Positions 420 through 36,478 of a stretch of 64,000 bases of DNA are shown here, in pieces; position 1 is the stretch's first letter; every line of letters starts with the position of its first letter. The notes under the pieces are model-generated. The model was given only the letters and a program-made list of their open reading frames with translations. It was not told the origin of the DNA and searched no databases. The stretch covers positions 14,132 through 78,131 of IMG/VR virus record IMGVR_UViG_3300050011_000047; one strand, given 5' to 3'. Position numbers and translations under genes: made by a program. Source of the DNA: a virus. Lineage: Duplodnaviria; Heunggongvirae; Uroviricota; Caudoviricetes.

Positions 420-864
420 AGTTTGTGCCGCTCAGGGATGTATGAACACCTTTCAACCATTCAGACGAAAAATATACTGCACCCCTGAATGTAGAGGACG
501 TGAATCAAGACTCCGCAATGCAACGTACATCCGTGAGTGGAAGCGAGACAATCGCCCTAGGTTAAATACCTATGCTCGCACATGGGGTTCCAAAAATCGA
601 GACAAACTTTCACAGTACAATCGGAATGCTCGTTTCCGCCGATATGGGATAACGCACGAGCAGTTTCTTGAGATGCTTGATGCGCAGCAAGGATTGTGTG
701 CTATCTGCCATACAAATGATACAGGGAAGAAGGATTGGAGGATAGACCACGATCATCAAACAGGAGCGATTCGTGGTCTATTGTGTGGGCCTTGTAATGG
801 TGCACTTGGGTTTCTAGAGCGAAGCGGCTGGTTAATCTCGGCGCAGAGGTACTTAGATGGGTAG
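412..864 (+). CDS. HNH (endonuclease VII-like) homing endonuclease in a low-GC island
   Basis: ATG 412 overlaps the upstream stop (ATGCTTAA). Translation has CxxC plus ...CAICHTNDTGKKDWRIDHDHQTGAIRGLLCGPCNGALG (H-N-H, Zn-binding Cys pairs). GC content drops sharply over 420-900. Confidence 0.6.
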   Translation: MLKVCAAQGCMNTFQPFRRKIYCTPECRGRESRLRNATYIREWKRDNRPRLNTYARTWGSKNRDKLSQYNRNARFRRYGITHEQFLEMLDAQQGLCAICHTNDTGKKDWRIDHDHQTGAIRGLLCGPCNGALGFLERSGWLISAQRYLDG

Positions 865-1882
865 GGTGCTTCTTTGTCTCGCACATTCAATAGAAGAACA
901 TGACCAACTCCGCCTCCTTCATGGGCTCGGTTACGATGTCGCCTCGCTCGGCGGCTACATTGATCCACGAGTCCCGCATGATGACAAACGCCCGGCACTC
1001 GACATCCCGCAAGTCGATGTCGTGCGCGAGTCCGTCGATGCGCTCGGCGTCGATGACAATATCGGCGCGGCGCAGGCGCACATCCCGGAGCCGATCCTCG
1101 AATGGCTCGGTGCCGACGGCATCATCATCTACCACCACTACCTCGAACGACTGTTCGCGCAGTGGCCGCACTTGGGCGATTGGCGCTCGGGCGGCGGGCG
1201 TGTCGTGTGGCGTACCGTCGGGCAGTCCGTCGAACCAAACGAGCGGCGAGCCAAGCCATTCGTCCATGACGGGCTAGAAGTTGTCCGCTACTCCCCGAAG
1301 GAGCGGAACATCCCCTCGTACTCCGGCGAGTCCGCGCTCATCCGCTTCTACAAAGACCCCGAGGAGTGGACGGGGTGGACGGGTACCGCCGAGGGTGTAA
1401 TCAACTTCACGCAGGACATGCTTGCGCGCGAGTCCTTCTGCAACTACGGGTTTTGGAAGACGGCGACGGCGGCGCTCCCGGCGAAGGTTCTTGGGCCGGG
1501 CTCCGAGCAGATTGGTGGGCCGGGCAAGGTGAGCGAACCCGAGATGCAGTCGTGGCTACGGCAGGCGCGGTGCTACCTCTACACCGGCACGCAGCCTGCC
1601 TCGTACACGCTCGGCCTGCTCGAAGCGATGATGACCGGCTGCCCCGTCGTGAGCATCGGCCCCAAGTGGATGACGCACTTCCCCTACGGGCCTGACATGT
1701 TCGAGGGCCACGAACTCGCGGGCCTATGGGACGAGAGCCCGACGAATGCTCGCAGCATGCTGCGCGCGCTCCTCGAAGATCACGACCTTGCGCGCGAAGT
1801 CTCCGAGCGGCAGCAGTCACGCACACGCGCCGAGTTCGGCATGGAGCCGGTCGGACGCGCGTGGGCGGCGTTCCTCGGTTGA
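857..1882 (+). CDS. glycosyltransferase family 1
   Basis: 341 aa. C-terminal ...QPASYTLGLLEAMMTGCPVVSIGP... is typical of GT1/GT4 nucleotide-sugar binding. ATG 857 overlaps the HNH stop. Confidence 0.6.
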   Translation: MGRVLLCLAHSIEEHDQLRLLHGLGYDVASLGGYIDPRVPHDDKRPALDIPQVDVVRESVDALGVDDNIGAAQAHIPEPILEWLGADGIIIYHHYLERLFAQWPHLGDWRSGGGRVVWRTVGQSVEPNERRAKPFVHDGLEVVRYSPKERNIPSYSGESALIRFYKDPEEWTGWTGTAEGVINFTQDMLARESFCNYGFWKTATAALPAKVLGPGSEQIGGPGKVSEPEMQSWLRQARCYLYTGTQPASYTLGLLEAMMTGCPVVSIGPKWMTHFPYGPDMFEGHELAGLWDESPTNARSMLRALLEDHDLAREVSERQQSRTRAEFGMEPVGRAWAAFLG

Positions 1883-2565
1883 GCGTCGCGCCGTTCACCG
1901 AAGGCGGGCCACCGCCCGTCGGCCCGCCGCATGAACTGCGGGCTATCCCTCCCGCACCGTATCGCACGGAGCCCCTGTTCCCCGGCCCCGAGCGCGGGCA
2001 GAAGGCGCTCCTGCTCGTAGCGCACCCGGACGACGAGACGTTGTTCGCGGGCGGCGCGCTCCTGCATTACCCCGGTTGGGATTGGCATATCGTCTGCATG
2101 ACCGGCGTCGAGGAGCGGCGCACGCAGTTCGACGCAGCGATGCAGATGTACCGGGACTCGGGAGTCAACATCGCGTACACGCGCAACCACGAGTTCATCG
2201 ACCGAGCGCATCTCCCTGACCGGCGACTGTGGCTCGCGGCGCTCGCGAAGGAGAACTGCTCGTGGGACATCGTGCTCACGCACGGCGCGCGAGGCGAGTA
2301 CGGCCACCATCATCACATTTGGCTCAACCACATCGCGCATCTCCTCTACGAGAACGTGTGGGACTTCTTCAACCCCGGCGCGAAGGTTGAGCAGATAGTC
2401 AAGACGAACACTGTGATGGTGCCGACCGAGCGGCGCAAGTCCCTCATCTTTGACACGGCATACGCGGGGATTGCTCGTGGCATCCGCGAGAACGCGCCGT
2501 ACCTTGCACAGTCGCAGTTGTCGGGCGAGCCCGAGTTCTTCACGCAAGCGGTGCTCGGGTTGTGA
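1861..2565 (+). CDS. PIG-L/LmbE family N-acetylglucosaminyl deacetylase
   Basis: ALLLVAHPDDETLFAGGALL is the PIG-L signature, with His-rich motifs downstream (HGARGEYGHHHH). Start uncertain: GTG 1861 or TTG 1879 (TTGA overlap with the upstream stop). Confidence 0.6.
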   Translation: MGGVPRLSVAPFTEGGPPPVGPPHELRAIPPAPYRTEPLFPGPERGQKALLLVAHPDDETLFAGGALLHYPGWDWHIVCMTGVEERRTQFDAAMQMYRDSGVNIAYTRNHEFIDRAHLPDRRLWLAALAKENCSWDIVLTHGARGEYGHHHHIWLNHIAHLLYENVWDFFNPGAKVEQIVKTNTVMVPTERRKSLIFDTAYAGIARGIRENAPYLAQSQLSGEPEFFTQAVLGL

Positions 2566-3383
2566 GTCGCGCAGTCTTCCTCCCGACTCCGGGCGATCCG
2601 TTCCTTGTCTCGTATTGGCTGCGTGAGTATGCGGCATGGAAGCAGCACACGGATCGGCTCTACGTCCACATGTCATTCCCTCAGGAGCCGGAAGTAGCCG
2701 AACGTCTCCGCGCGGACATCGAGGCCGCAGGCGGCGTGTGTGTTCTTCCGCCCGACGTTGTGCCTCGCGAGCACGGTCAGGCGCTCAACGCGCTGCTCGA
2801 TCAGTGCGAGGAGGATGTCGTGTTCATGTGCGAGGACGACCTCTACATCCGCAATCCCGAGATGGTGCGTCGATACTTCGAGCGCGTCGAGGCGCAAAGC
2901 ACAGTGATCGGGCGTCCTCGTGGCTCGATGTCGATGGAGATTGTCAACGCGCTGCACAGTCAGTACCCACAGGGTGCGGGCCTGTGGCCGTTCTTATTCG
3001 CACGTGTCGAAGACCTCCGCCGACTGAGTGAGCCGTTCGGTGCTCGTTGGTGGGCCGCAGGCGAGACGATCAAGGGCGTGAACTACACGTGCATCGAGGC
3101 GTGCAATGCAGACACGTTCGGCGCGGCGTCGATGGAACTTCGCGGGCTTGTGCCGGTCGAGGTCGGAGAGAGCGAGCAGCGCGGTGGGTGGCATCACGCG
3201 GGCAGTCTCTCCTCCGGGCCGTACACAAAGGACTACGAGCATGTGCGCGCGGCGGCATTCTCGTGGCGAGTCCGAGTCGGGTGGTGGGAGAAGTTCCACG
3301 CCACATGGCCGGGAGGACTCCCGGAGCAGTACGCGGCCTACGGTCAGGCGCTCGACCGCCTCCATGCTACTCTCCGGTCATGA
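2562..3383 (+). CDS. hypothetical protein of the glycosylation cassette (possible DxD-type sugar transferase)
   Basis: GTG start overlaps the upstream TGA (GTGA). Translation has VVFMCEDDLYI (DxD-like). No firm family assignment. Confidence 0.4.
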   Translation: MSRAVFLPTPGDPFLVSYWLREYAAWKQHTDRLYVHMSFPQEPEVAERLRADIEAAGGVCVLPPDVVPREHGQALNALLDQCEEDVVFMCEDDLYIRNPEMVRRYFERVEAQSTVIGRPRGSMSMEIVNALHSQYPQGAGLWPFLFARVEDLRRLSEPFGARWWAAGETIKGVNYTCIEACNADTFGAASMELRGLVPVEVGESEQRGGWHHAGSLSSGPYTKDYEHVRAAAFSWRVRVGWWEKFHATWPGGLPEQYAAYGQALDRLHATLRS

Positions 3384-4021
3384 GCATCGTCACCTTCCCG
3401 TCCGGGCTCAAGTGGGATGTCCGGGATGACACGACTGATTGGAACACCGTCTACGCTGCCGGTGCCGACGGCGATGAGTACGGGCTCACCGGGGTGAATG
3501 TAAACGAGGCGCTCGTCTTCGACATTGGATCACACATCGGCGGGTGTGGGGTGTGGCTCGCTACTCGGAATGCGCGAGTCGTGTTCGTGGAGCCGATCCC
3601 GGAGAACGTCGAGGGGATCAGGCGCAACCTCTATCTCAACGGAGCGCATGCGCTTGGCATCGTGGAAGCAGCCGTCGGGACGGATCGCATCTGTCTCGGC
3701 CCGCCGGGAGATGCGCACGAGTACATCGGCGGTATGACCGGCGTATCTGACGACGACTCCCGTTGGCTCAATGTCGGGCGCACGACGTTCGACAAACTCG
3801 CTCAACGCTATGGCGTGCCGGACATCGTGAAGATCGACTGCGAGGGAGGCGAATGGGAAGTGCTGCGTAGCGTGAACATCCGCGCCGTTCCGCTCATCGT
3901 GGGCGAGTATCACCCGCTCGACGCCTATCGCGGCCCGAACATCGCGGTCATGCTTCCCGATCACGACGTGACCATCGGAGAGAGTCCCGATCTTGGCGGC
4001 TTCCGCGCGGTGCGCCGATGA
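3380..4021 (+). CDS. FkbM-family SAM-dependent methyltransferase
   Basis: ATGA overlap with the upstream gene. VFDIGSHIGGCGVWLA ... VKIDCEGGEWEVL are hallmark FkbM motifs. Confidence 0.6.
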   Translation: MSIVTFPSGLKWDVRDDTTDWNTVYAAGADGDEYGLTGVNVNEALVFDIGSHIGGCGVWLATRNARVVFVEPIPENVEGIRRNLYLNGAHALGIVEAAVGTDRICLGPPGDAHEYIGGMTGVSDDDSRWLNVGRTTFDKLAQRYGVPDIVKIDCEGGEWEVLRSVNIRAVPLIVGEYHPLDAYRGPNIAVMLPDHDVTIGESPDLGGFRAVRR

Positions 4022-4563
4022 GCCCGGAGGAGCAGATCGCTTACTTCAAGGTTGCGAAGACTTGTGAGGTTGACGGCGACATCGTAGAGTGCGGCGTCTA
4101 CAACGGGGACTCTCTTTGCGCGATCACGTCGGCGCTCCCCGGACGCAGGGTGTGGGCATACGACTCCTTCGAGGGCTTCCCGCCGGGCAATCCTCTGCAT
4201 GATGACCCCGTGGCGCTCGGGCTCGCGGGTGCGGTAGTCGGGCATCCGTCGCAGGTAGCGCGGCAACTCCACGGGCTCGCAGGAGAACTACAGATTCGCG
4301 CCGGGTGGTTCGCGGAGACGTTCCTACTTCCGCTACCCGAGCGCATCGCGATACTGAGTGTGGATTGCGACCTCTACGACTCCGTGCTCCTGACGCTGCG
4401 CACGATGGCAAACCGCGTCGTGTCCGGCGGCATCATCACCGTGGATGATTGGACGTGCTTCGAGGGTTGCCGTGCGGCGGTTTACGATTGGGTGATCGAA
4501 AGCGGCGAGCGTCCGCTACTCACGACGTTCGGTACCGGGCAAGCGTACTGGCGTGTGTCATGA
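4018..4563 (+). CDS. TylF/MycF-like (macrocin-O-methyltransferase family) O-methyltransferase
   Basis: 181 aa. ...DIVECGVYNGDSL... and ...LSVDCDLYDSV...GGIITVDDW resemble class I SAM O-MTs of the TylF family. ATGA translational coupling. Confidence 0.55.
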   Translation: MSPEEQIAYFKVAKTCEVDGDIVECGVYNGDSLCAITSALPGRRVWAYDSFEGFPPGNPLHDDPVALGLAGAVVGHPSQVARQLHGLAGELQIRAGWFAETFLLPLPERIAILSVDCDLYDSVLLTLRTMANRVVSGGIITVDDWTCFEGCRAAVYDWVIESGERPLLTTFGTGQAYWRVS

Positions 4564-5636
4564 ACGTTCTTGTGGACAGGCATCATGCCGGTCTTTTGTA
4601 CTCCCTTCAACTTCTCTTTGAGGATAGGTTGGGTCTAGACTTGTATATTCCGATTGGCTCGCAGTGGTGGGACTTGGGCGTGTGGCAGTTCGGCAAGGGC
4701 TACGGTGATGACCGGCTCGCGCAGCAGTATCTCTCGATCAACAATGCCGAACTCATCCTCGGGCTAGATGAGGCCACACCTGCACGCGAGGCCGTCGAGG
4801 GTGACGGGCATTACGTGCTGCGCGACATGGCCGAGTATCCCGAGCGGGACATCCGCTGCGTCACGATGGAGCAGTACAAGAACCTCGGAGAGTGGGCCTA
4901 CGTCGTCGCCACCGTGCCGGACAACGCGCCCGGCTTCGCAACACTCGCGAAGTACAGCGGCGCGAAGTTCGTCTATCAGGTGGGCAACCACAATCAGTTC
5001 ATCGACTGGACTCTTAACCCCATCGTGCTCTCGTCATCCGAGGCCGACCTCCGAGGCTCGACCAAGGCCGTAGCGATCCACCAAGAGTTCGAGAAGGACA
5101 CCGTGTTCCGCTACCGGCCCCCGTCGTACACGTACCAAGACCGCTGCTCGACCGGCTCGTTCGTCAACTGCTTCAACCGCATCCCACGCGAGTTGGGCTA
5201 CTGGACGGAGACGCGCGACATCCTCGACCCCTATGGGTGGTGCTTCGCGATGCACGGCTCCGACGGCGACGACGGCAAGGTGGGGCCGTGCGCGACGCTC
5301 GCGGACAAGATCGCAGAGTTCGGGTTCGGGTGGCACGACAAACCACACGGCGACGGCTTCGGCCACGTGATCCACTACCTCGCGTCCGTGGGCCGTCCGC
5401 TCGTCGGCAACGCGGCGAACTACAAGGGCCTGTTCGCGGAGGGCTTGTGGGAGGACGGCGTGACGGCAGTCGATACCGGCAAGCGCAGCCCGGCGGAGAC
5501 GGCGGAGATTCTCCGCGACATCGCGAGCGATCCCGACATCCACAACGAGATGTGTAAGGCCATCCGCGAGCGCGTGGACACCCTCTGCGACTTCGACGCC
5601 GAGGAACTCCTCGTGCGCGACGTGCTCGGGCTCTAA
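4560..5636 (+). CDS. hypothetical protein, last gene of the glycosylation cassette
   Basis: ATG 4560 (ATGA overlap). 358 aa. C-terminal ...GHVIHYLASVGRPLVGNAANYKGLF... is faintly GT-like. High GC3. Confidence 0.4.
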   Translation: MNVLVDRHHAGLLYSLQLLFEDRLGLDLYIPIGSQWWDLGVWQFGKGYGDDRLAQQYLSINNAELILGLDEATPAREAVEGDGHYVLRDMAEYPERDIRCVTMEQYKNLGEWAYVVATVPDNAPGFATLAKYSGAKFVYQVGNHNQFIDWTLNPIVLSSSEADLRGSTKAVAIHQEFEKDTVFRYRPPSYTYQDRCSTGSFVNCFNRIPRELGYWTETRDILDPYGWCFAMHGSDGDDGKVGPCATLADKIAEFGFGWHDKPHGDGFGHVIHYLASVGRPLVGNAANYKGLFAEGLWEDGVTAVDTGKRSPAETAEILRDIASDPDIHNEMCKAIRERVDTLCDFDAEELLVRDVLGL

Positions 5637-5687
5637 TCCCTCGAACGAGGGAGAGACAACTCCCGGCTCCTGCCCGATACTGAGGGC
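5637..5687 (+). promoter_or_regulatory. palindrome TCCCTCG-AA-CGAGGGA (5637-5652), then -10-like GATACT (5676-5681) 6 nt before ATG 5688: probable leaderless promoter with an operator
   Basis: The same architecture is found in reverse orientation at 30949-30998 (palindrome, 22-23 nt, GATACT, 6 nt, ATGGAC). Confidence 0.4.
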
Positions 5688-5867
5688 ATGGACAACTTCG
5701 ATACACCCGAGAGCGCGTGGGATTCCGAGTCACGGCGCTCACCCTTCTGCACCGTGTGGTCACCCGAGCAGGACGACGACGCCGAGTGGCAGCGCAACTA
5801 CGACAAGGCGATGTCGATATGGGGTCAGGAAGACCTCGCAGACGAGTACGCGGACGCGAGGGCATAA
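5688..5867 (+). CDS. small acidic hypothetical protein (59 aa)
   Basis: MDNFDTPESAWDSESRR... High GC3. TAATG overlap with the next gene. Below the ORF-track size cutoff. Confidence 0.35.
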   Translation: MDNFDTPESAWDSESRRSPFCTVWSPEQDDDAEWQRNYDKAMSIWGQEDLADEYADARA

Positions 5868-8179: not shown

Positions 8180-8596
8180 ATGGCGATGGTATCCCGCACG
8201 TGGAACGGCCTCACGATCCAATCGAAGATCGACCGCGCAGCCGGGCGGGCCATCGTCGGCGTCGGCGTGCTCGCGTCCGTCGAGACGAAGCGCGTCACGC
8301 ACAAGATCACCGGCACGCTCGCCCGCTCCGTCCACGCGGCGGAGCCGATGGAGTACCATGAGTTGGATGAACAAGATGCCGCAGGAGGCGCTGACCTCAT
8401 GGAGAACGTAGGCGAGTTGCACGCCGGGAAGATTCCCTTCGGGCGCGTCATCGAAGTGGGCTCGTGGATCAGTTACGCATGCGCCGAGTGGGTTGGGCGC
8501 GGGCACCCCGGCGTCACGCAGGGGCTCGAAGTCACGCGCGGCGCACGCACGGACGCCATCGTCAAACAGGCGTTCATCGAGGAGGGGCTCGCGTAA
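8180..8596 (+). CDS. HK97 gp10-like tail completion (neck) protein
   Basis: MAMVSRTWNGL...ITGTLARSVH... resembles the HK97 gp10 family N-terminal pattern. ATG 8180. Confidence 0.45.
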   Translation: MAMVSRTWNGLTIQSKIDRAAGRAIVGVGVLASVETKRVTHKITGTLARSVHAAEPMEYHELDEQDAAGGADLMENVGELHAGKIPFGRVIEVGSWISYACAEWVGRGHPGVTQGLEVTRGARTDAIVKQAFIEEGLA

Positions 8597-9075
8597 TGCC
8601 GTCCGGGCTCCCGCCGATCAGCCCCGCCGAGTTGACTGCCGACCTCATCCGCCGGTACGGCTCCGCCATCACGAACGAGGGCTATGCCCTCGTGGTAGGC
8701 CCGGCCACGGACGCGCAACAACAACAGGGCGTCGTAACGCTCATGGCGGCGGGCTTGCCGTTGATCGAGAAGTACGCGCCGTTGCAGTGGCACCGCTCGC
8801 AGGCGCGGTGCATCGCGGGCGACCTCATCACCGCCGACATCATCGCGCAGTTGGTGCAGCGCGACACGCACGGAGTCATCCGCAAGTTGTGCTTCCAGAA
8901 GCCGAAGGCCGAGTACCCCGAGGACACGGGGCGGTGGTTCCTCGTGCACATGGCGAACGTCACCGCCGGGCCGTCGCACCACTACGACTCACCCGAGACG
9001 TGGGAGTCGCTCCTGTTCATCGAGATGATGATTGGCACGGACGCCGTGGCGACCGGGCCTGACTTCCCCCAATAG
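8596..9075 (+). CDS. putative tail terminator protein
   Basis: ATGA-coupled to the gp10-like gene. Call is by position before the major tail protein. Confidence 0.35.
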   Translation: MPSGLPPISPAELTADLIRRYGSAITNEGYALVVGPATDAQQQQGVVTLMAAGLPLIEKYAPLQWHRSQARCIAGDLITADIIAQLVQRDTHGVIRKLCFQKPKAEYPEDTGRWFLVHMANVTAGPSHHYDSPETWESLLFIEMMIGTDAVATGPDFPQ

Positions 9076-9108
9076 GGGGTTGCGTTCGGCAGCGCCCGGC
9101 CCGATAAT

Positions 9109-9315
9109 GTGGGCATGCAAGCATACGGAATCTTCGAGCACCATCGCGAGCGCACGCCGACCGGCGGCGGGCTCGTCGCGCGGGCCGTGTACGACGACGG
9201 CTCGGCGCACGATCAGTTCAACTATGGCGGGCTCGTGCCGATCAAGGTCTACAAGACTGAACGCGGCGCAGACGCCTACGTGGATCGCAAGTACCGGGAG
9301 CGTGTAGGCTCCTAA
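9109..9315 (+). CDS. hypothetical protein
   Basis: GTG 9109 or ATG 9115. 66-68 aa. Confidence 0.3.
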   Translation: MGMQAYGIFEHHRERTPTGGGLVARAVYDDGSAHDQFNYGGLVPIKVYKTERGADAYVDRKYRERVGS

Positions 9316-10740: not shown

Positions 10741-11202
10741 CTACTTACCACGCATACGACGAGCATTGTGACGCCAACGGCAGTTGTCACACCCTTCGGT
10801 TATGTAGTCGAGTGGCCCACCGCATCCGACGCACTCCGTCTTCAACGGCCCGACGACCGCTATGGATCGCACGGATTCCGCTTGCTCCTTCTTCACATCC
10901 GAAAGGTATGGCCACAGGATGCGGAGCACCTTCTCACCTTCCTCACGGTATGCATGAAACACGTAGTGCGGCTTGGTGCCCGGTGTCTTTCCGCTCGTGT
11001 GCGAGATGTACGGCCCGTATGGCCCGCCGACCTTGCCAGCGCCAACGGCAGCACAAAACCGGTCAAGCACGCGCCGATCAATCTGTCCGACCTGTACTCG
11101 CAAGTATGGGCGAGTGTGTTTTCCATCAACGGTCATTGCACCCGTGTGCCCCTCCCCATCGAAGAAGCCTGCGGCCCACGCGATTTCTGTTTTGTTCTCC
11201 AT
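10741..11202 (-). CDS. LAGLIDADG-family homing endonuclease (paralogue 1)
   Basis: MENKTEIAWAAGFFDGEGHTGAM... Low-GC island inserted between the major tail protein and chaperone genes. Paralogous to the genes at 35409-35819 and 49171-49518. Confidence 0.6.
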   Translation of the reverse strand: MENKTEIAWAAGFFDGEGHTGAMTVDGKHTRPYLRVQVGQIDRRVLDRFCAAVGAGKVGGPYGPYISHTSGKTPGTKPHYVFHAYREEGEKVLRILWPYLSDVKKEQAESVRSIAVVGPLKTECVGCGGPLDYITEGCDNCRWRHNARRMRGK

Positions 11203-11387
11203 AACAAGGAAGTCTAGCAGATGGAACCCGATCACATCGACGTTGACTTCTCCCCCACCCGCAGGCTCGTGAAGCGAGCGATCCGCGACTTGGAGGATGC
11301 CAACAAGGAACTCGCGCGGCTCGAAGAACGGTGCCTCGCGCTCGAAGCACGTCTCCTAGCCGAATACGGAATCGAAAGGAAGATCAC

Positions 11388-19033: not shown

Positions 19034-20158
19034 ATGCGCCTGCATCTTGTCTCGCTCCCACACACTGAAACGACCTCGGAGTACATGACCTGCGCCTACA
19101 CGCAGAAGGTGGTCAAGTTCTCGAAGATGATGGTCGAACAGGGGCACGAGGTCTTCCTCTACGCGGGCACGCGCAACGAAGCCATCTGCTCGGAGCACAT
19201 CGAGGTCATCACCGAGGAGGAGCGGCTCGGGTGGTACGGCAAGTGGGACACGAACAAACCACCGGACGTGGATTGGTCACCCGATCAACTTCCATGGGGC
19301 GTCATGGCTGCACGCACTGTTCGCTCGATCAAGAAGCGCCGTGAACCGGGCGACATTCTCTGTATGGTCGCAGGTTGGTCGCAGCAGGCTATTTCCAAGG
19401 CGCTCCCGCAGTTGCTTCCTCTTGAGTGGGCTGTCGGCTACGAGGGCATCCACCACCAATACCGCGTGTTCGAGTCGTATGCGTGGATGCACCACGTCTA
19501 CGGACTCACCGGCAACAAGGGATGGGACTACAACACAATCGCCTATGACACGGTGATCCCCAACTTCTTCGACCCCGTGGACTTCCACACCGCGCCGGAC
19601 AAGGACGACTACCTCCTGTTCATCGGCAGGCTTGTTCGACGCAAGGGGCCAGACGCAGCCGCACGCATCGCTGCGCTCACAGGACGCAAACTCATCGTGG
19701 CCGGGCCGGGTGCGAAGGCGCTCATGCCGGGGCGGATCATTGCCGAGGATGTCGTCATCGAGGGCGATGTTGAGTACGTGGGTGCAGTAGGCGCGGACGA
19801 ACGTGCCGAACTCATGTCCCGCGCGGCAGCGTGCATTGTGCCGACGCTGTACGTCGAACCGTTCGGCGGCGTGGCGGTCGAGGCGATGATGTGCGGCACG
19901 CCCGTCGTCGCGACTGATTGGGGCGCGTTCCCGGAGACGGTGCAGACGGGCATCTCGGGCTACCGCTTCCGCACGCTGCGCGAGGGCGCACGCGCAGTCG
20001 AGAAGGCAGTCCTCCTCGATACACAGGCCGTGTCGGACTACGCCCATCGGCGGTACAGCATCGACGCCGTAGGCCCGATGTTCTCGGAGCACTTCGAGCG
20101 CCTTCAAGAACTGTGGGACGAAGGCGGGTGGTTCGCATCGCGGTCTTTGACGGACTGA
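19034..20158 (+). CDS. glycosyltransferase family 1 (GT4-like) embedded among tail-fibre genes
   Basis: ...FIGRLVRRKGPD...LIVAGPG...EPFGGVAVEAMMCGTPVVATDWGAFPETVQTGISGYRF is a GT4 C-terminal signature. Confidence 0.6.
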   Translation: MRLHLVSLPHTETTSEYMTCAYTQKVVKFSKMMVEQGHEVFLYAGTRNEAICSEHIEVITEEERLGWYGKWDTNKPPDVDWSPDQLPWGVMAARTVRSIKKRREPGDILCMVAGWSQQAISKALPQLLPLEWAVGYEGIHHQYRVFESYAWMHHVYGLTGNKGWDYNTIAYDTVIPNFFDPVDFHTAPDKDDYLLFIGRLVRRKGPDAAARIAALTGRKLIVAGPGAKALMPGRIIAEDVVIEGDVEYVGAVGADERAELMSRAAACIVPTLYVEPFGGVAVEAMMCGTPVVATDWGAFPETVQTGISGYRFRTLREGARAVEKAVLLDTQAVSDYAHRRYSIDAVGPMFSEHFERLQELWDEGGWFASRSLTD

Positions 20159-22037: not shown

Positions 22038-23756
22038 GACGCACCCGATCCTAAGAAGGTACGCGCAGCCGTCGAAAAGGCCAAGGAGGGCTCCGACGGC
22101 AAGGTGCTCAAGGTACTCTACCTCGACGCGCAGGGTGAGCCCGCAGGCGATTGGGCCTCGACGCAGTTGCCCGAGAATCCGTGGGAGACTGTGCAGGCCA
22201 CCACGCAGTTGATCGAGCCCCCGTTCCCTATGGGGCAGTTGACCTTCCTCGCGGAGATGCACCCGGTGCATTCATCGGCGCTCGAACAGAAGGCAGCGGA
22301 CGTGTGCGGCAAGGGATGGGAATGGATCGCGGATGATCCCGATGTAGCAGACGAAGACCTCCGTGACGAGATGGAGGACTGGTTCCAGTCGCTTGCACCG
22401 GACGAGTTCGACATGCGCGAACTCGTCAACACCGCGTGGCTCGATGAGGAGACGACCGGGTGGGGACTGCTCGAATGCGCACGTGATCCGCAGGGAGTCG
22501 TGCAGCGGCTCTACCACGTGCCCGCGCACACGGTCAAGACGCACAAGAACGGGTTTGCTCTCTGCCAGGTGCGCGACTCGCGCAAGATGTGGTTCCGTAG
22601 GTGGGGCTCCACTGACATCGCCGGGAAGCCGGTCGAGGTCAACATGCGCAACGGCTCAATCACGAACGTGCCGGAGGATCAGCGCGCGAACGACCTTCTC
22701 GTCATCAAGCGCCCGTCGCGGCGATCCACGTGGTACGGCATCCCCGGCTACATCTCCGCAATCGGATGGATCACGCTCGCGCTCGCAGCACGCGATGACA
22801 ACCTGTACTTCTTCTCCAACCGCCGCGAGCCCCGTTGGGCGATCATCCTCACCGGTATGGCCGAGGATACCGAGATTGAGGAAGATCTCCGGCGCGCGTT
22901 CACCGTGGACATGAAGCAGCCGTACCGAAATGTCATGGTACCGGTCGCAGGCAAGGACGCGAAGGTCACCTTCCAAGAGTTGTCGTCCACGGCGAAGGAC
23001 GGCTCGTTCGGGAACCTCGGGGATCGCGCCGACAAGGCCATCATGGTCGCACACCGCGTGCCCGCCGAGCGTCTTGCGAACTCCCAGGTTGGCGCTCTCG
23101 GCGGCAACGTCGCGTCCGAGTCGAACCGCGTCTACAAGGAAGGCGTCGTCGCTCCCGCGCAGGAGGTTCTCAACTCGCGCCTCAATCGCTTCATCGCGGT
23201 CGAGTTTGCCAAGTACAAGAATCAGGAGTACAAGAAGGGCGACAAGTCGATGTGGCTTCTCAAGATGGATGACCTCGACATCCGCTCCGACCGCGAGGAC
23301 ATGGATCAGGCGCTCATCCTGTTCCACGGCGATATGATTACGCTCCGGGAAGCGCGTCATCGGCTCGGCCTCGGCCCACTCATGAAGCCGAAGCCGGTCG
23401 CACAGAAGAACCCGGATGGTACGCCGAAGACGAACCCTGACCCGATCACGGGTGAGCCGACGCAGGTCTTCGGCCCGCCGATCCCCGGCGTAGACGACGA
23501 GGAGAACCCGGCAGTGGACATCAACGGCAACCCCGTACCGCCTGAGGAAGTCGAGTCCGAGTTCAATGACATGTTGTTCTCGCAGTTGCCGGGCGCGAGC
23601 GGTCAGGCCGGGCTCCCCGGTGGCGCTCCGCCTACCGGCACCGGCAAGTTGACGCCGGAAGTGAACAAGGCGCTCGCGTCTGACGTGCGTGAACTGCTCC
23701 GTTCATCCTACGCGACACATGATCGTATCGCGCGGATGGCCGGAGATGACGGCTAG
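22035..23756 (+). CDS. portal protein
   Basis: 573 aa with an acidic C-terminus, immediately upstream of and overlapping a MuF-like gene (canonical portal-MuF pairing). Assignment is by size and context. Confidence 0.55.
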   Translation: MDAPDPKKVRAAVEKAKEGSDGKVLKVLYLDAQGEPAGDWASTQLPENPWETVQATTQLIEPPFPMGQLTFLAEMHPVHSSALEQKAADVCGKGWEWIADDPDVADEDLRDEMEDWFQSLAPDEFDMRELVNTAWLDEETTGWGLLECARDPQGVVQRLYHVPAHTVKTHKNGFALCQVRDSRKMWFRRWGSTDIAGKPVEVNMRNGSITNVPEDQRANDLLVIKRPSRRSTWYGIPGYISAIGWITLALAARDDNLYFFSNRREPRWAIILTGMAEDTEIEEDLRRAFTVDMKQPYRNVMVPVAGKDAKVTFQELSSTAKDGSFGNLGDRADKAIMVAHRVPAERLANSQVGALGGNVASESNRVYKEGVVAPAQEVLNSRLNRFIAVEFAKYKNQEYKKGDKSMWLLKMDDLDIRSDREDMDQALILFHGDMITLREARHRLGLGPLMKPKPVAQKNPDGTPKTNPDPITGEPTQVFGPPIPGVDDEENPAVDINGNPVPPEEVESEFNDMLFSQLPGASGQAGLPGGAPPTGTGKLTPEVNKALASDVRELLRSSYATHDRIARMAGDDG

Positions 23757-26700
23757 CGCACTAGACCTCTCCGCCGAGCATCTCCGTCAGGTCGAGGAGT
23801 TGTACCTTCGCATCCGCGAGGCGGGGATCGAAGCCGACGCAGGCAGTGATGATCTTCTCGCACTCTCGCGCGAGCACAAGCGGCGCGTGAAGCATCTGTT
23901 CCTCGCGGTCGAGAAGATGCGGCGCAGCCCGCACCGGCAGGCCGTCCATGAGAAGTCGCACGCGCAGCGGCTCGCGCTTGAGCAGGTGTGGACGCAGCGG
24001 CTCCGGCTCCTCTCCGACCATCTCGTCAACGGCTTCGACATCGACGGGGCCTACGAGGTAGCCCGGCGGGCGTGGGTCACCCCGGCGGACGAGCCCCACG
24101 ACGGCATCTACGTGGACGAGCATGCGCCGGGGCGGCTCAAGAAGGCTCTCACGCCGCCGAAGAAGTCTGACCTCTCGGTGGTCGAGCACTGGCCCGGCAA
24201 GCGCGGGACGGCGGCTCGACTTGCGCTCAAGAGGGCGGCGACTACCGAGGGCGTCGAGGCGCTCGTGCTCCGCGACTCGACCGGCAACCCGATTGCCGTC
24301 GCAGCGGTCAAGGCGAGCCCCGGCGACCTGCACGTGGAGTTCCTTGCATCCGAGCCCGGCAAGGGCGCACAGATGATGCAGGAGTTGGCGAAGGTGGCGA
24401 AGAAGACCGGCTCCGGGCTCTCCCTGTTCTCTGTCCCCGAGGCGGCGCAGTTCTACGATGGGATCGGGATGGCGGCAGGCGACCGCGCCGGGCAGTACAT
24501 CATGACCCCTGCGCAGACGGCGGCATTCGCGGTGACCGGCGGCATTCTTCCTCCGGCGGGCTCGAAGGCGGCGGGTATGACCAAAACCGAGCAGGCAGGT
24601 GTGCAGCAGTTGATGCTCAACGCGATCCAGTCGAGCGGGACACCTGGCAGCGCCGACGTGAAGCGGGCACTCTCATCGGTCGAGAATCAGGCAGCATGGG
24701 AGCGCGGCGCGGCGACGCAGTACCTCGGGCTCGCGGTGCAGACGGCGGAGCAGGCCGGGCAGGTGGCGCTCGATCATCTCGGACTCCACAAGACGTTCGA
24801 GTTCGCGAACCCGCAGACGATGGTGGGCGACGCGACGGCGGTGCGCGGCTCGAAGGTGATTCAGTCCATGTACGGGGCGCACGTCGATGCGCTTACGAAC
24901 ATCATCACGGACGCCACTAACCCGGCAGCGCCGCAAACCATCGCGCAAGTCAAGGCGTCGATCCGCGAGCAGTGGCCGAAGTTGCAGACGTATCAGGTCG
25001 AGCGGATCGCACGCACGGAGACGGCGGCGGTGTGGATGTCCACGAGCGCGAACGCCTACGCGGCGAACGGCATCTCGCAGTTCGAGACTATCGTCGCCAC
25101 CGGCCCAAGCATCGGCGTCGAGAGCGAAGACCCGTGCGACGAGTGTGTGGCGGCGGCAGAGGACGTGCACTCGCTCGATGACGACCTCCCGCCGTGGCAC
25201 CCAAATGCGGTGCTTGGAGGTTCTACGTTTCTATCTTACGGTGAACCGCTCGAAGCGGTTCGTGCGCGCTACCGTGGCCTTTCCGTACTCATCCGTGCGG
25301 GGGAGCACGTGCTTACCATCGGGCCTAACCACCCGGTGATGACCCGGCGCGGGATGGTGCCTGCAAATCAGATTCGCGAAGGTGACGAGTTGGTCTACGA
25401 CAGACGCGCTAATCGGCAGGAAGGCGCGATACGCGCTATCACATCGGACATCGAAGACGTGCCACTCGTCGAGGATGCGTTCACGGCGCTCCTGTCTACG
25501 GGCACGTATGCGACCGTTCCCGTGACCCCCGATGATCTCCACTGCGACGGGGTATTCTGCGAGGGCGAAGTCGATGTTGTAAGGCCCGACGGCAACCTGC
25601 TGGCGGTACTCGATCCCCGAGGCATCAAGGAGATGCGCGAAGTCGCGTTCGAGGCTTCCAGCGCCGAGTACCCTCAACTCTCTCGTTTTCGCGCGAGCCT
25701 CACGCCGAGAGAGCGGGTCGATGTTTCCACGTCGAGCCTCGTGGCAGGCCATGAATCGCTTAGGTTTATTCGAGTCATTCATGTGGACTTTGTGGACTTC
25801 GAGGGATGGGCGTTCGATTTCTCGGTACAGGGTGGGATGTATCTCAGTAATGGCTTTATGGTATCAAACTGTCGATGCGAGGCCGTGCCGGTACTGGAGG
25901 ACACGGACGGCACGCCATGGCTTCCGCCGGACGAACCGTGGACGGGCGGCGGCGACGGCTCCGGTGACATGGCACCGGGCACATTGTTCGAGCCGATGCC
26001 TCCACCGGAGCAACTCGCGATGGAGTTTGCGCCGGGCACGGTTGCGCCGTCGGCGGACATCTTGCTCAAAGGCTCGCTTGCGCAGCAGACGGTGCAGGAA
26101 GAACTCGGCAACATCGGGCGCGTGCATCAAATCCCCGATCACGTTGATGTGCCTTCGGTCAAGGGCGCGGTACACAACTCCTACTCACCCGATGAGAACC
26201 GCATCTTCCTCAATCCTCGTCCCGCCGAAGGCGAGTATCTCAAGGGCACGAGCGTTGTTCACGAGTACGGGCACTTCGTGCAAGAGCAGCGTGTCGTCTC
26301 AATGAACGATCAGATTGCCGTGTCCGATATGGCCGAGGCCACGCCGGAGTGGGCGTCGTTCGAGCGGTACGACCAACAACCGAACGAGTTGTTCTCCCGC
26401 GTGTATCAGCAGTGGATCGCAACCAAGAACGCGGACGAAGTGAAGTTGGCGTTCTACAAGGCGCAAGGCAAGTTTTGGTCACCCGAGTCGTTCAAGCCTC
26501 TCGGCGCGAAGATGGATGAGGTCTTCGCTCCGCTCATGAAGCCGAAGTTCCCGGACGGCTCACCCAAACTCCCGGAGAAGACGCCCGACGCAGCGCCCGC
26601 ACCGAAGGCGGAGGAGTTCCCCGCACCACTCGTGATCGACGCTGCGACGTGGACTGAGAAGAAGGTAATCGAGACACTCGCGCCGTTCGAGGGACGCACC

Positions 26701-29700
26701 GTTCGCCTGACGGGCCAGGGGTTCAAGGGGCACGAGTACACGATGGAGGGCGAGTACAAGTTCGACAAGGAATCAGGCTACCCGCTCGTTGGGGATCGCA
26801 CCATCGGCACCGGCACGGACATGGTGCACGTCGAAGTGCAAGACTCCGGCGGCGCGTGGCACACGATTGCGGAGAAGCCGTTGTCCGAGCGTGCGCCGGT
26901 CGAGCCCGAGCCGACGTTCTCGAAGCCCGACGCACTCCCCACGTATTCGGGCAAGACCGTGGAACTGTCCGAGCGGTACAAACTCAAGGTGCCGAACAAG
27001 GAGTTGAAGGCGTCGGTCACGACGGCGCTCGATGACATCGCGAGCCGGATTAAACTCCCGGAGGAAGCACGCCCTGTGGACGTTACGCCGGGCTCCGGCA
27101 TGTCGTCAAACTTCACGCCCGCAGGTGTGCAGCGCGGTGTTGTCAAGGGTGCACGCATTCGTATCTCCACGAATCGCGGTACGCAATCGCATTTCGACCG
27201 CATCGACTCGACCTATCATGAATACGGGCACTACCTCGATTGGACGGGCCTTGGCGGCGCGGATGGTTGGGCGGGCACGCGGTACGGCTCCGAGTACGCA
27301 GCCGACATGAAACCGCTCATGCAGGCGTTCTTCGACTCGCCCGAGTACAAGCAGTGGCGCGACATCTACTCCGGTAAGTTCAAGCCCGGTGAGGGTGTCT
27401 ACGCGCCCAAGAGTCATGCTCGCTACATGAAGTCGAACGTCGAGTTGTTCGCTCGCGGCTTCGCGCAGTACATGTCCGAGGTCACTGGCAACGCGGAGTA
27501 CCGCGCGTTCGTGGCCGATCACGTCCCGCTTGAGAAGGGCGGGTGGTATTGGACGCCGGAGAACTTCGCGCCGATCAAGGACGAGTTCGACAGGTTGTTT
27601 GAGAAGCGAGGTCTACTCAAGGAGACGCCACCCGCGCCCGAGCCGTTGCCCGCACCTACACCCGAGCCCCTCGCGCCGGAGACGCCCGCGTTCGCGCCCA
27701 AGGAGCCGCTCACGCAAGATCAGCAGTTGGCCGTCAACGACTACACCGGCAGAGGCGGCGAGGGGCAGGAGGGCTACCTACGCACGAACCGTTGGCTCCG
27801 TGGGCTCAAGCAGACACACGGCGACCCGCTCGCGACGATCAAGAACCGCGTCGAGCATCTCGATGCAGCCATCGAGAGCGCGGCCCCGCTCGCGACGCCG
27901 ACGACCGTGTGGCGCGGTATCGGTAACTCTGAGTTCTATGGTGGCGGCGGCACGCTCAAGGTCGGTCAAGTGATCGAAGACCCGGCCTACCTCTCGACCT
28001 CTTCGACGCCGAAACTTCCGACCTCGTGGGCGGGCACTCACGGCGACCTGTGGGAAATCAAACTGCCGAAGGGGATGAAGGGCCTCGACGTGAACGCGGC
28101 CCTCAAGGACACACCCTACGGCCCACACGGGCTCGATCCGGCCACGACCAAGGAGGGCGAGATTATCCTCCCACGCAACACGCGCCTCGTGGTGGACGCG
28201 ATCAAGGAGCGTGTCACGACATACCCGAACGGGAACCGCGTGGTCGCACACGACGTTACAGCGCACGTGGAGAGCATCCCCGAGTTGCGCCCGCCGACGC
28301 CGGTCAAGGAGAACATCCCCGATCCGAACCCGGCAACTCCGCCACCGCCCCCGCCTCCGCCCCCGCCTCCGCCACCGGCACCCACTCCGGTGCATCCGAC
28401 GACTCCCGAGGCAACACCGGCCTCCACGACGAACAACCCGCCCCTCCCCGAGTGGCACGACTTCACGACGCCCTCCGGGCTCGAAGCCGGGCTCGCACAC
28501 TACGAGGGCAAGCAGGTGCGTCTGACGTTCACGTTCCCGAGCGGAGCAACTAAGAAGTTCACCGGGCTCGTTGAGCGCAACTCACGCGGGCAGATGATGG
28601 TGGATCGTTCGACGTTCCGCGAGTCAGCCGTCCCGAACATCACGGGCGTCGAGGTCAAGGTCGGCAGTCGCTTCAAGCCGTGGAAGGAATACGAGCGTAT
28701 GACGCCCGAGCAGCAGAATCCCGCGCCTCCGAAGCAGCGCACGGCATCCGGTTCGTCAGAGAAGCCGGTACCCGAGGGCGGTTACACGTTCCCGGACAAC
28801 GTACCGAGCGGTGTCCTCGGTGACGTACCGGCAACGCCGATCTTCGAGAACGTCGCGCATGCACAGGCGTTCGCAGAGAGGTACCTCGCACGTGAGGTCT
28901 ACCTCGGAAAGAACCCGGAACTCAAGGGCGTGCAAGAGGCGCTCGATGCGATGGCGCAAGTGCTGCGCCCGTTCGACTTGAAGATCGAGCGGTTGCAGGT
29001 CGAGCATGATCCGCGCTCCTCGGGGCTCGCGTACTACTCCTCGAATGCCACGAAGAAGATGCTCATTGACGGCAAGAAGCAGTATTGGTCAGGCGAACTC
29101 ATCCGCGCGCAGGCGCAGTTGTTCTCGAAGTCCAAGGCGGCGGCGGTGGGTGACAACCAAGCAGTGTTCGAGGCGAACAAGGCGAAGGAGATTCGCACGC
29201 GCGAGGACTGGATCGCACAGGCGGAAGAACGCCACACGTCACCCGAGAAGATCGCGCAGTACCGTCGTGAGATTGCCAACTTGGAAGCGGCGAAGCGGTG
29301 GTACATCGCGGCGGTTGATGGCGGTGCTGACGCCACCAAGGCGTTCATGTCGCACGAGGCTGCGCACATGCTCTCGCGTAACTTCGGACATGAAATCGCC
29401 GGAGTCAGCATCACGGAGGCGGGGCTCGCGCCGATCTTCACCACGCGACTTGAGTTGCACGGCGTCACGCAGGAGGAGCGTTGGTCAGTCTCGCAATACG
29501 GCGCGAGCGGCGACAAGGCGCGACAGGCTCAAAACTCGGAGTTGTTCGCAGAGGTTACGGCGGCGAAGATCAGCGGGCACTATGACCTCGTGCCCCTCAA
29601 CATCCGCGAGGCATACGAGGAGACGCTCGGCTACATCACGCAGGCTGACATCGAGGCGAAGGCAGCGGCGAACAAGGCCCGAGATGCGGCGGTCGAGGCG

Positions 29701-29757
29701 AAGCGCGTACAGAAGGCCGGGCTCGAATCGGTGCGCAAGCGGGTTGGGCTACACTAG
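23746..29757 (+). CDS. giant MuF-like virion protein: MuF domain interrupted by an intein, two HEYGH zincin-like motifs, an ADP-ribosyltransferase-like domain, a poly-Pro linker and a C-terminal domain
   Basis: ATG 23746 after CCGGAG. Translation has ERIARTETAAVW...DLPPWHPN[221 aa]CRCE (Mu F signature PPxHPNCRC split); TSVVHEYGHF and STYHEYGHY; ...TTVWRGIGN...AYLSTSS...KEGEIILPR (R/STS/ExE); [14 protein letters not shown]. Confidence 0.7.
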   Translation: MTASALDLSAEHLRQVEELYLRIREAGIEADAGSDDLLALSREHKRRVKHLFLAVEKMRRSPHRQAVHEKSHAQRLALEQVWTQRLRLLSDHLVNGFDIDGAYEVARRAWVTPADEPHDGIYVDEHAPGRLKKALTPPKKSDLSVVEHWPGKRGTAARLALKRAATTEGVEALVLRDSTGNPIAVAAVKASPGDLHVEFLASEPGKGAQMMQELAKVAKKTGSGLSLFSVPEAAQFYDGIGMAAGDRAGQYIMTPAQTAAFAVTGGILPPAGSKAAGMTKTEQAGVQQLMLNAIQSSGTPGSADVKRALSSVENQAAWERGAATQYLGLAVQTAEQAGQVALDHLGLHKTFEFANPQTMVGDATAVRGSKVIQSMYGAHVDALTNIITDATNPAAPQTIAQVKASIREQWPKLQTYQVERIARTETAAVWMSTSANAYAANGISQFETIVATGPSIGVESEDPCDECVAAAEDVHSLDDDLPPWHPNAVLGGSTFLSYGEPLEAVRARYRGLSVLIRAGEHVLTIGPNHPVMTRRGMVPANQIREGDELVYDRRANRQEGAIRAITSDIEDVPLVEDAFTALLSTGTYATVPVTPDDLHCDGVFCEGEVDVVRPDGNLLAVLDPRGIKEMREVAFEASSAEYPQLSRFRASLTPRERVDVSTSSLVAGHESLRFIRVIHVDFVDFEGWAFDFSVQGGMYLSNGFMVSNCRCEAVPVLEDTDGTPWLPPDEPWTGGGDGSGDMAPGTLFEPMPPPEQLAMEFAPGTVAPSADILLKGSLAQQTVQEELGNIGRVHQIPDHVDVPSVKGAVHNSYSPDENRIFLNPRPAEGEYLKGTSVVHEYGHFVQEQRVVSMNDQIAVSDMAEATPEWASFERYDQQPNELFSRVYQQWIATKNADEVKLAFYKAQGKFWSPESFKPLGAKMDEVFAPLMKPKFPDGSPKLPEKTPDAAPAPKAEEFPAPLVIDAATWTEKKVIETLAPFEGRTVRLTGQGFKGHEYTMEGEYKFDKESGYPLVGDRTIGTGTDMVHVEVQDSGGAWHTIAEKPLSERAPVEPEPTFSKPDALPTYSGKTVELSERYKLKVPNKELKASVTTALDDIASRIKLPEEARPVDVTPGSGMSSNFTPAGVQRGVVKGARIRISTNRGTQSHFDRIDSTYHEYGHYLDWTGLGGADGWAGTRYGSEYAADMKPLMQAFFDSPEYKQWRDIYSGKFKPGEGVYAPKSHARYMKSNVELFARGFAQYMSEVTGNAEYRAFVADHVPLEKGGWYWTPENFAPIKDEFDRLFEKRGLLKETPPAPEPLPAPTPEPLAPETPAFAPKEPLTQDQQLAVNDYTGRGGEGQEGYLRTNRWLRGLKQTHGDPLATIKNRVEHLDAAIESAAPLATPTTVWRGIGNSEFYGGGGTLKVGQVIEDPAYLSTSSTPKLPTSWAGTHGDLWEIKLPKGMKGLDVNAALKDTPYGPHGLDPATTKEGEIILPRNTRLVVDAIKERVTTYPNGNRVVAHDVTAHVESIPELRPPTPVKENIPDPNPATPPPPPPPPPPPPPAPTPVHPTTPEATPASTTNNPPLPEWHDFTTPSGLEAGLAHYEGKQVRLTFTFPSGATKKFTGLVERNSRGQMMVDRSTFRESAVPNITGVEVKVGSRFKPWKEYERMTPEQQNPAPPKQRTASGSSEKPVPEGGYTFPDNVPSGVLGDVPATPIFENVAHAQAFAERYLAREVYLGKNPELKGVQEALDAMAQVLRPFDLKIERLQVEHDPRSSGLAYYSSNATKKMLIDGKKQYWSGELIRAQAQLFSKSKAAAVGDNQAVFEANKAKEIRTREDWIAQAEERHTSPEKIAQYRREIANLEAAKRWYIAAVDGGADATKAFMSHEAAHMLSRNFGHEIAGVSITEAGLAPIFTTRLELHGVTQEERWSVSQYGASGDKARQAQNSELFAEVTAAKISGHYDLVPLNIREAYEETLGYITQADIEAKAAANKARDAAVEAKRVQKAGLESVRKRVGLH
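25207..25869 (+). other. putative mini-intein (221 aa) inserted between N and C of the MuF HPN/CRC motif
   Basis: Begins AVLGGSTFLSYGE (Ala1). Block B-like LTIGPNHPV (TxxH). C-terminal ...GMYLSNGFMVSN followed by Cys +1. Local GC is lower than the flanking extein. Confidence 0.5.
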
Positions 29758-32465: not shown

Positions 32466-32477
32466 ACTGCCTCCTTC

Positions 32478-34978: not shown

Positions 34979-35000
34979 GAGTCGCAGTGTAGCGGAAGTT

Positions 35001-35027: not shown

Positions 35028-35041
35028 GTGGCTCCGGCTGG

Positions 35042-35395: not shown

Positions 35396-35408
35396 GTGTG
35401 TCCTCCTC

Positions 35409-36462: not shown

Positions 36463-36478
36463 ACCCTCATTGTACGTG

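Follow-up and report, generated by a model that had tools for sequence, protein, structure and literature searches.

A predicted leaderless promoter with an operator-like dyad, repeated in an uncultured actinobacteriophage and its relatives

The window analysed here, a 64-kb stretch of viral DNA (positions 14,132 to 78,131 of IMG/VR record IMGVR_UViG_3300050011_000047), comes from an uncultured phage of high-GC Gram-positive bacteria, an actinobacteriophage, and contains the promoter cassette that is the subject of this study. The cassette as a whole is a 51-nt module that combines an operator-like dyad, a predicted promoter and a putative leaderless start. Genes on the + strand extend up to 29757 and include a glycosylation/methylation cluster together with head-tail, tail, Dit-like and portal genes and the gene for a 2012-amino-acid (aa) polyvalent protein; genes on the − strand, from 30028 onwards, encode DNA polymerase A, a primase, an SNF2 helicase, a PD-(D/E)XK nuclease and a sigma-70 family factor, among others. 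The first copy of the cassette (P1) divides the glycosylation cluster from a 59-aa acidic open reading frame (ORF) and the head-tail genes, and the second (P2) precedes the last gene of the − strand block.

With positions numbered from the A of the ATG as +1, the palindrome of P1, TCCCTCGAACGAGGGA, occupies 5637–5652 on the + strand and can be read with either 7-2-7 or 6-4-6 geometry; it spans −36 to −51 and, measured from the A of ATG 5688, has its centre at −43.5. The upstream gene (4560–5636, + strand; stop codon TAA at 5634–5636) ends directly before it, and a −35-like hexamer, GAGACA, follows at 5653–5658, matching TTGACA at 4/6 positions and lying 17 nt before the −10. The −10 hexamer itself, GATACT at 5676–5681, is preceded by a C and stands 23 nt after the palindrome and 6 nt before the ATG. 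The first gene of this transcription unit, encoding the 59-aa acidic protein (5688–5867, + strand), would begin translation at its transcription start; it has an orthologue in a 93.8-kb relative described below, and head-tail and tail genes lie downstream of it.

P2 is oriented along the − strand, where its palindrome reads TCCCTCGTTCGAGGGA (30998–30983), spans −35 to −50 and is centred at −42.5 from ATG 30948. The stop codon TAG (31007–31005) of the gene upstream on the same strand lies 6 nt ahead of it. The −35 hexamer ATGACA (30983–30978, 5/6) takes the last base of the palindrome as its first base and is separated by 17 nt from the −10 hexamer GATACT (30960–30955), which again follows a C and lies 22 nt after the palindrome and 6 nt before the ATG. 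The product of the gene that begins there (30028–30948, − strand) is 306 aa long and combines an OB fold with a zinc-binding-like motif. Its structure model has a predicted local distance difference test (pLDDT) score of 93, its best viral match is annotated as a single-stranded DNA-binding protein (SSB; E = 1e-13), and the product appears SSB-like, similar to phage single-stranded DNA-binding proteins.

These two copies had been reported in an initial annotation of the window, whose coordinates and spacings (23 or 22 nt, then 6 nt to the ATG) are borne out for both. Its list of elements was right on the palindrome and GATACT and overlooked the −35, with GACA placed 17 nt before GATACT in both copies, and its position for the palindrome, −35 to −49, needs correcting to the values given above. 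Both copies are real and the exact 16-mer TCCCTCGAACGAGGGA occurs only twice in the window, yet a third, diverged copy at 9065–9117 was missed.

This third copy, P3, was detected by listing all intergenic regions and then reading 9020–9130. Its palindrome, TCCCCCAATAGGGGGT, occupies 9065–9080 on the + strand and is centred at −42.5; the stop codon TAG of the upstream gene (8596–9075, + strand) falls within the central 4 nt of the dyad. The −35-like hexamer TTGCGT (9080–9085, + strand) lies 17 nt before the −10 hexamer GATAAT (9103–9108, + strand), which is 22 nt after the palindrome and 6 nt before ATG 9115, the putative leaderless start of a 66-aa ORF on the + strand that P3 opens. An orthologue of P3 is found at position 11950 of the 93.8-kb relative (L007).

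The architecture is sparse in the window. Four sites match TCCCTCGAACGAGGGA with up to two mismatches against 0.78 expected. Perfect 7-2-7 palindromes as a class occur at chance level (8 seen, 7.2 expected), TCCCTCGAACGAGGGA being the sole duplicated one. Across the 64 kb, a start codon 6 nt past GATACT is found at the P1 and P2 sites only, the same holds for GACA-N17-GATACT-N6-ATG, and in a promoter consensus scan P2 was one of just two sigma-70-like sites in 20 kb. P1 and P2 also have the 11-mer CCGATACTGAG in common. Their 17-nt spacers are unrelated in sequence, which argues against a recent duplication of a DNA block and indicates that what the copies share is a set of selected functional elements; the description of the cassette as duplicated therefore stands only in this sense.

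Some other + strand genes have the same −10 placement and lack the dyad: in the portal gene (ATG 22035, TATACT) and in a gene at 6347 (TAGAAT), exactly 6 nt separate the −10 from the ATG. The dyad is thus an accessory to this promoter type and not part of it.

To place the cassette in a comparative context, we recovered related uncultured phages with protein-anchored and pattern scans, which gave 16 cassette instances, the three window copies included, from at least seven related phages. Relatives that keep the cassette at orthologous sites have protein identities of 36–79%. The 93.8-kb relative is syntenic with the window at 50–70% protein identity and carries the cassette at every orthologous site, reading TCACCCTTTCGGGGGA-23-GATACT-6-ATG at the P1 orthologue, TCCCCCTTCGGGGGGA-22-GATACT-6-ATG at the P2 orthologue and TACCCCTTCTAGGGGA-22-GATACT-6-ATG at the P3 orthologue, and it has an additional cassette at position 8761. 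A 63.5-kb relative (L002; ~50% identity) has at least five cassettes, and other P2 orthologues occur in relatives at 79%, 56%, 56%, 53% and 36% protein identity.

The dyad has 6-4-6 (7-2-7) geometry in 16/16 instances, with 91.7% of positions symmetric and the consensus T-C-C-C-Y-C-N4-G-R-G-G-G-A, and its end lies 22 or 23 nt from the −10 in every one of them, which puts its centre at −42.5 or −43.5. C-GATACT is the −10 in 14/16, and the quality of the −35 is variable, being weak or missing in several orthologues. When seven P2 orthologues are aligned, no column varies in the dyad arms, at G.C within the −35, at C-GAT..T across the −10 or at C-ATG, and the spacer drifts freely. The relative L157, with 79% protein identity, has kept TGACA, CGATACT and the whole dyad (16/16), and about half of its 17-nt spacer is altered. 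Because the dyad is invariant at both 79% and 36% protein identity while spacers drift, its sequence, and not its structure alone, appears to be under selection. We also considered a regulator co-evolving with half-site position 5, which is T in this phage and C in the 93.8-kb relative; this idea is weakened by P3, which is itself of the C type.

As predicted from these alignments, each cassette would be a housekeeping-type (sigma-70/SigA-like) promoter laid out as dyad, −35 of variable quality (nnGACA at best), 17 nt, C-GATACT, 6 nt and ATG or GTG, with a transcript that would begin at the A of the start codon and so be a leaderless mRNA. All three window copies have the A at position 2 and the T at position 6 of a sigma-70/SigA-type −10, placed so that a transcript would start about 7 nt downstream, and each has a −35-like hexamer within the 16–18 nt expected (GAGACA, ATGACA and TTGCGT, each at 17 nt). 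A start codon, ATG or GTG, lies exactly 6 nt past the −10 in 13 of the 16 instances, including all three in the window, and C(−1)/A(+1) is invariant among the P2 orthologues; transcription from the A agrees with this conserved distance and with the constancy of C(−1)A(+1), and we infer that it starts at the A of ATG 5688, 9115 and 30948. Mycobacteria translate any mRNA with AUG or GUG at its 5′ end as a leaderless message (PMC4633059). The leaderless promoter proposed in the initial annotation is accordingly upheld by the comparison; its conserved first two codons, ATGGAC, are not, since orthologues read ATGACC, ATGAAC or ATGACA and what is kept is C(−1) and A(+1). A Sigma-28/WhiG-type −10 (GCCGATAA) was rejected for want of a TAAA −35 and because relatives read GCGATA.

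Two further observations concern leaderless starts. The P2 gene has a second in-frame ATG at 30921 with the Shine-Dalgarno sequence AAGGAG (30934–30929), and the same order, a leaderless ATG and then a Shine-Dalgarno-led in-frame ATG 9–11 codons on, is seen in L075, L106 and L080. The conserved protein of the P2 gene and of three orthologues begins at the second ATG. This dual start suggests that the SSB-like gene could be initiated both from its own transcript and from read-through transcripts. Elsewhere on the − strand (53189–53120), TTGACA-17-TACCGT-6-ATG opens an 11-codon mini-ORF whose TGA overlaps the ATG of a DUF932 gene (ATGA); the DUF932 gene also has its own Shine-Dalgarno sequence, and the mini-ORF is a predicted leaderless upstream ORF coupled to the main gene.

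The dyad would be an operator for a dimeric helix-turn-helix (HTH) regulator, sitting just upstream of the −35 and touching it. In all instances its centre, at −42.5 or −43.5, falls within the class II/NarL-like range of −41.5 to −44.5, in which class II activators and those of the NarL type sit to recruit RNA polymerase; a repressor at that position would give the opposite sign of regulation, and both the protein binding and its sign are inferred here from sequence. The reading we consider best, with confidence a little above even, is of a leaderless promoter under the control of a dimeric regulator that would bind the dyad as its operator. The dimeric protein operator named in the initial annotation is likewise the best-supported of its interpretations, by the fixed 22–23 nt distance to the −10 and by four further lines of evidence set out in the following paragraphs: a dyad shared between divergent promoters, a copy within an ORF, variants that abolish the hairpin, and the layout of host two-component operons.

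A rather unlikely alternative, and the one that fares best against this reading, is that the cassette pairs a terminator with a promoter: the palindrome would be an RNA hairpin that ends, pauses or 3′-protects the transcript of the upstream operon, with the next promoter packed close behind. A hairpin is physically feasible. The initial annotation had dismissed one on the ground that a 2-nt loop is too short, an argument that fails, since the perfect dyad copies fold as a 6-bp stem with a 4-nt loop at −9.7 kcal/mol, and the window does contain a real terminator–promoter pair (51836–51995). The genuine terminators of this phage, however, reach −19 and −28 kcal/mol and have U-runs, whereas no T-run was ever seen after the dyad (the followers are GAGACA, TGACAG and TGCGTT), and the terminator scan makes no call at these sites. 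An Rfam search of the entire window gave no match at the gathering threshold. Variants with TCACCC at three independent sites and TACCCC at a fourth have only −5 to −7.7 kcal/mol, with z of −0.2 to +1.0, and so fold like shuffled sequence; as these hairpin-destabilising variants are retained, the function of the dyad appears to be independent of RNA hairpin stability. The non-symmetric dyad positions are A·G or C·A, with no G·U wobble intermediates such as a stem would be expected to pass through, and the spacing to the −10 is fixed where the position of a terminator would be free.

The location of individual copies bears on the same question. The 63.5-kb relative has one dyad flanked by two divergent promoters, with GATACT 23 and 22 nt away, and ORFs begin at the predicted points on both strands, the GTG on the − side, 6 nt past GATACT, opening the ORF 8210–8530. 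Neither promoter transcribes the shared dyad, which makes an RNA role unlikely there, and no upstream transcript needs termination. The additional cassette of the 93.8-kb relative is within the 3′ end of a translated upstream ORF whose stop codon comes past the −10. In the actinomycete Microtetraspora, the gene upstream of a matching site is apparently divergent, which would put this host copy between divergent genes; this orientation comes from an ORF call based on third-position G+C content (GC3), which is ambiguous at that GC content.

Sites of the same architecture are also found in actinomycete genomes. The host pattern scan covered one genome per prokaryotic species, and only the coherent actinomycete subset of its matches was used. 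Actinomycetota account for 28 of the 67 pattern matches, and 10 of these 28 have a start codon exactly 6 nt past GATACT. The layout TCCCTC-N4-GAGGGA, 22–23 nt, GATACT, then ATG or GTG, stands ahead of kinase-like genes with similar N-termini in Asanoa, Microtetraspora, Planobispora, Plantactinospora, Sphaerisporangium and Actinoallomurus; the exact 6-nt spacing is present in Asanoa, Plantactinospora, Sphaerisporangium and Amycolatopsis, and Microtetraspora, Planobispora and Actinoallomurus have another distance. The actinomycete loci with this promoter architecture are L027 (Plantactinospora), L034 (Planobispora), L038, L045, L047, L053, L058, L062, L064, L065, L068 and L073. Four loci have an ORF for a NarL-like regulator behind the kinase gene, and Pfam identified a HisKA_3 kinase in one and a REC-GerE regulator in two. 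The dyad is invariant across these species and the spacer varies, and a Gaiellaceae contig has one dyad common to divergent GATACT and GATAGT hexamers, 22 nt from each. This host layout is what would be expected for autoregulation by a NarL-family dimer. As judged from N-termini, an MMPL-like ORF comes next in two of the four kinase/regulator loci. Related sites stand before genes that, from their sequences, read like extracytoplasmic function (ECF) sigma genes, in Gaiellaceae (L012, L031), or like a gene for a GGDEF protein (L018, L061). A literature search on the motif string found nothing, and nothing relevant came up on the two-component system or on any actinophage counterpart described earlier.

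Several observations weigh against a regulated promoter with a protein operator. In most instances the dyad touches or runs into the stop codon of the gene upstream on the same strand, and its sole variable stem position covaries (T:A at 8 sites, C:G at 7, broken at 1), which fits a hairpin too. In distant relatives, the SSB promoter is preceded by a clear hairpin, likewise made of a C-run and a G-run, with a T-run, a canonical terminator CCCCCCGAAAGGGGGG followed by TTTTCCTTTT, 13–14 nt before a TTGACA −35; L078 carries TCCCCCGTTCGGGGGA. The dyad may therefore descend from a terminator hairpin or have a secondary RNA role. Two of the window promoters have a good −35 and −10, and may perhaps need no activator. 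No LuxR/GerE or other matching HTH regulator was found in the window or the related loci, where the DNA-binding hits are the sigma factor and one HTH_23 protein. Finally, the 67 matches in host genomes compare with a rough chance estimate of ~69, so that the actinomycete subset alone is informative.

As to what binds the operator, we tentatively propose a host two-component response regulator of the NarL family, whose operator the phage promoters would carry and which would be the same one that autoregulates the kinase/regulator operons; we regard this as possible and short of probable. Since the same dyad stands at the same distance from GATACT-N6-start before host kinase/NarL operons, a host response regulator would be the likeliest binder; otherwise, the binder would be an unrecognised phage protein. 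Pfam scans of most ORFs revealed no phage-encoded NarL-like protein. Four host regulators also served to build a profile for one, and its best E was 0.09 across six-frame ORFs from the window and from 12 related loci. Consensus sequences for LexA, DosR and CsoR boxes do not match the dyad. A recombination site for the phage's Xer-like tyrosine recombinase (35809–36429) was rejected, the dyad being too short and variable between orthologues in its central bases.

The sigma factor of the phage deserves separate consideration. It is a 282-aa sigma-70 family protein (50456–51304, − strand) with regions 1.2, 2, 3 and 4, it best matches RpoS/group 2 sigmas, and its region 4.2 helix, TVNTVKTRQVEGL, reads unlike those of primary sigmas. 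The cassette might be its target, with C-GATACT as its −10 and the palindrome, or the proximal GAGGGA, recruiting the phage holoenzyme. We consider this improbable. A full-length sigma factor encoded in the window, an orthologue (52% identity) in the 63.5-kb relative with its several cassettes, and the unusual invariance of the −10 are what would be expected of such a target, but the sigma factor is a poor candidate for dyad binding because the proximal arm, 22–23 nt from the −10, is too distant for a −35 and the palindromic symmetry would be left unexplained. Moreover, the GATACT-N6-start layout is also found at host chromosomal operons that have no phage sigma, a cassette promoter of the 63.5-kb phage heads the operon holding the sigma gene itself, and a separate conserved motif, TGCTACACT, is an equally good candidate. 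No homologue of the phage sigma turned up among the cultured actinobacteriophage records of the phage collection.

This second promoter-like motif, (C/G)TGCTACACT, is of the extended −10 type and lies a few nt past stop codons, followed by long Shine-Dalgarno leaders. Intergenic sites of this type occur on the − strand at 35041–34979, 37921–37836, 41626–41591 (TGCTAGACT at 41591), 50455–50279, 51364–51305 and 59646–59514. They represent another promoter class than the cassette does and may be targeted by the phage sigma or a host sigma. Between the motif and the ATG of the sigma gene, at 51305–51364 (− strand), is a strong hairpin with a T-run, GAAGGAGGGCTCCC-CAC-GGGAGCCCTCTTTTC, the 5′ arm of which holds the sole Shine-Dalgarno-like sequence; it looks like a leader terminator or attenuator. 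A degenerate dyad, TCACTCGCGCGGGGGA (10/12 arm positions), is present at 50318–50333 between the sigma gene and the deoxynucleoside monophosphate (dNMP) kinase gene, where GATACT is absent at the cassette distance and TAGGGT lies 9 nt downstream on the − strand.

That the cassette is a product of chance or a recombinational leftover, with two ordinary promoters and no further regulatory role, is very improbable: the exact copies in the window are only two and perfect 7-2-7 palindromes occur at chance frequency, yet the palindrome is kept at three orthologous sites, down to 36% protein identity, while spacers diverge, and two relatives have multiple further copies.

The window has 63% G+C and no tRNA genes. 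Megablast found no close relative among sequenced phages; at the protein level there are distant matches in phages of Microbacterium, Arthrobacter, Streptomyces and Rhodococcus. A haloarchaeal virus, an idea prompted by the acidic first ORF and the leaderless start, was rejected given ordinary pI values and relatives that are actinobacterial phages. Upstream of P1, the + strand region 866–5636 carries glycosyltransferase, PIG-L deacetylase, and FkbM and TylF methyltransferase genes, a cluster that probably serves glycan modification of the virion or the host surface; more glycosyltransferase genes lie at 24–419 and 19034–20158. The polyvalent protein gene (23719–29757, + strand) follows the portal gene, encodes ADP-ribosyltransferase exoenzyme and LPD1 domains, and is kept in relatives in a shorter form (1327–1395 aa). 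A gene set unusual for a phage lies at 31521–37123 (− strand) and encodes a Band 7/SPFH protein, an FtsH-like AAA+/M41 protease (662 aa), the Xer-like tyrosine recombinase (206 aa) and a proteasome-subunit-like protein; it is conserved in L157, L159 and L076, and L159 adds a protein with a receiver-like domain (cREC_REC, 3014–3382). There are many homing-endonuclease-like ORFs, three or four of them of the LAGLIDADG type and several treated as intergenic by the gene caller; those on the − strand include 10741–11235, 35396–35808, 49171–49518 and 59154–59513. A 23-nt repeat at 11156, 35776 and 49478 encodes the motif AAGFFDGEG. Two low-GC stretches, 420–865 (+ strand) and 46895–47266 (− strand), read like HNH endonuclease genes, and the ORF at 60289–60702 (− strand) has a T5orf172 domain according to Pfam.

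The cassette, by analogy, would work as promoters do that are activated in the class II/NarL manner or repressed from that site, which is a known kind of control element, and leaderless mRNA is common in actinobacteria; what is new here is the phage lineage and the motif. As it stands, the cassette is a well-behaved promoter with a dyad operator at a class II position, not a new kind of element. If our reading is correct, it would offer a simple experimental handle on gene regulation in an uncultured actinobacteriophage lineage that encodes its own sigma factor. It also points to an apparently undescribed actinomycete regulon motif, TCCCTC-N4-GAGGGA at −43 of GATACT promoters, before kinase/NarL-type operons. 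Should a host regulator bind the phage copies, the SSB gene and two operons of the structural arm would be wired to host signalling and not to a phage-encoded switch, and this would be a clear case of phage gene expression coupled to a host sensory system.

Several known systems resemble the cassette in part. Actinobacteriophages have multi-copy motifs, namely the stoperators of Cluster A, the start-associated sequences of Cluster K and the conserved inverted repeats of phiC31, which like the cassette are short, are repeated at gene starts or promoters within a genome and are common to relatives. Stoperators are asymmetric and block elongation, and start-associated sequences are found where translation begins; neither has a fixed place at −43 of a leaderless promoter, and the motifs differ from the cassette in sequence. 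In phage Mu, the Mor and C sites are dyads centred near −43.5 in middle and late promoters with a weak −35. They belong to another host group and have another sequence, no Mor/C homologue was found here, and two of the promoters described here have a good −35.

The C-boxes of restriction-modification C proteins also place a small dyad upstream of the −35, bound by a dimeric HTH protein, and several C-gene transcripts are leaderless. Unlike the cassette, C-boxes are paired operators with their own consensus that autoregulate the C gene, and no C-protein homologue was seen here. An intrinsic terminator with a promoter behind it, of which 51836–51995 is the true example in the window, likewise has G+C-rich, hairpin-capable sequence right past a stop codon and before a promoter. 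The cassette differs from it in having no T-run, a short stem whose stability is not conserved, and copies that lie between divergent promoters and in an ORF.

The sites of NarL, a response regulator of the NarL/FixJ type with a LuxR-type HTH, differ from the cassette in sequence, and the cassette is in a phage with no detected GerE-domain gene and has transcripts that are predicted to be leaderless. The NarL heptamer is TACCCCT, which the C-rich and G-rich arms of the cassette resemble (compare the site TACCCCTTCTAGGGGA of the 93.8-kb relative). The geometry is alike: the NarL site of Escherichia coli yeaR and the cassette are both 16-bp inverted repeats with 7-bp arms and a 2-bp gap that touch the −35, the centre being at −43.5 in the former and −43.5 or −42.5 here. 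At yeaR, NarL binds this 7-2-7 site just upstream of the −35, and a single NarL dimer suffices (PMC10853779).

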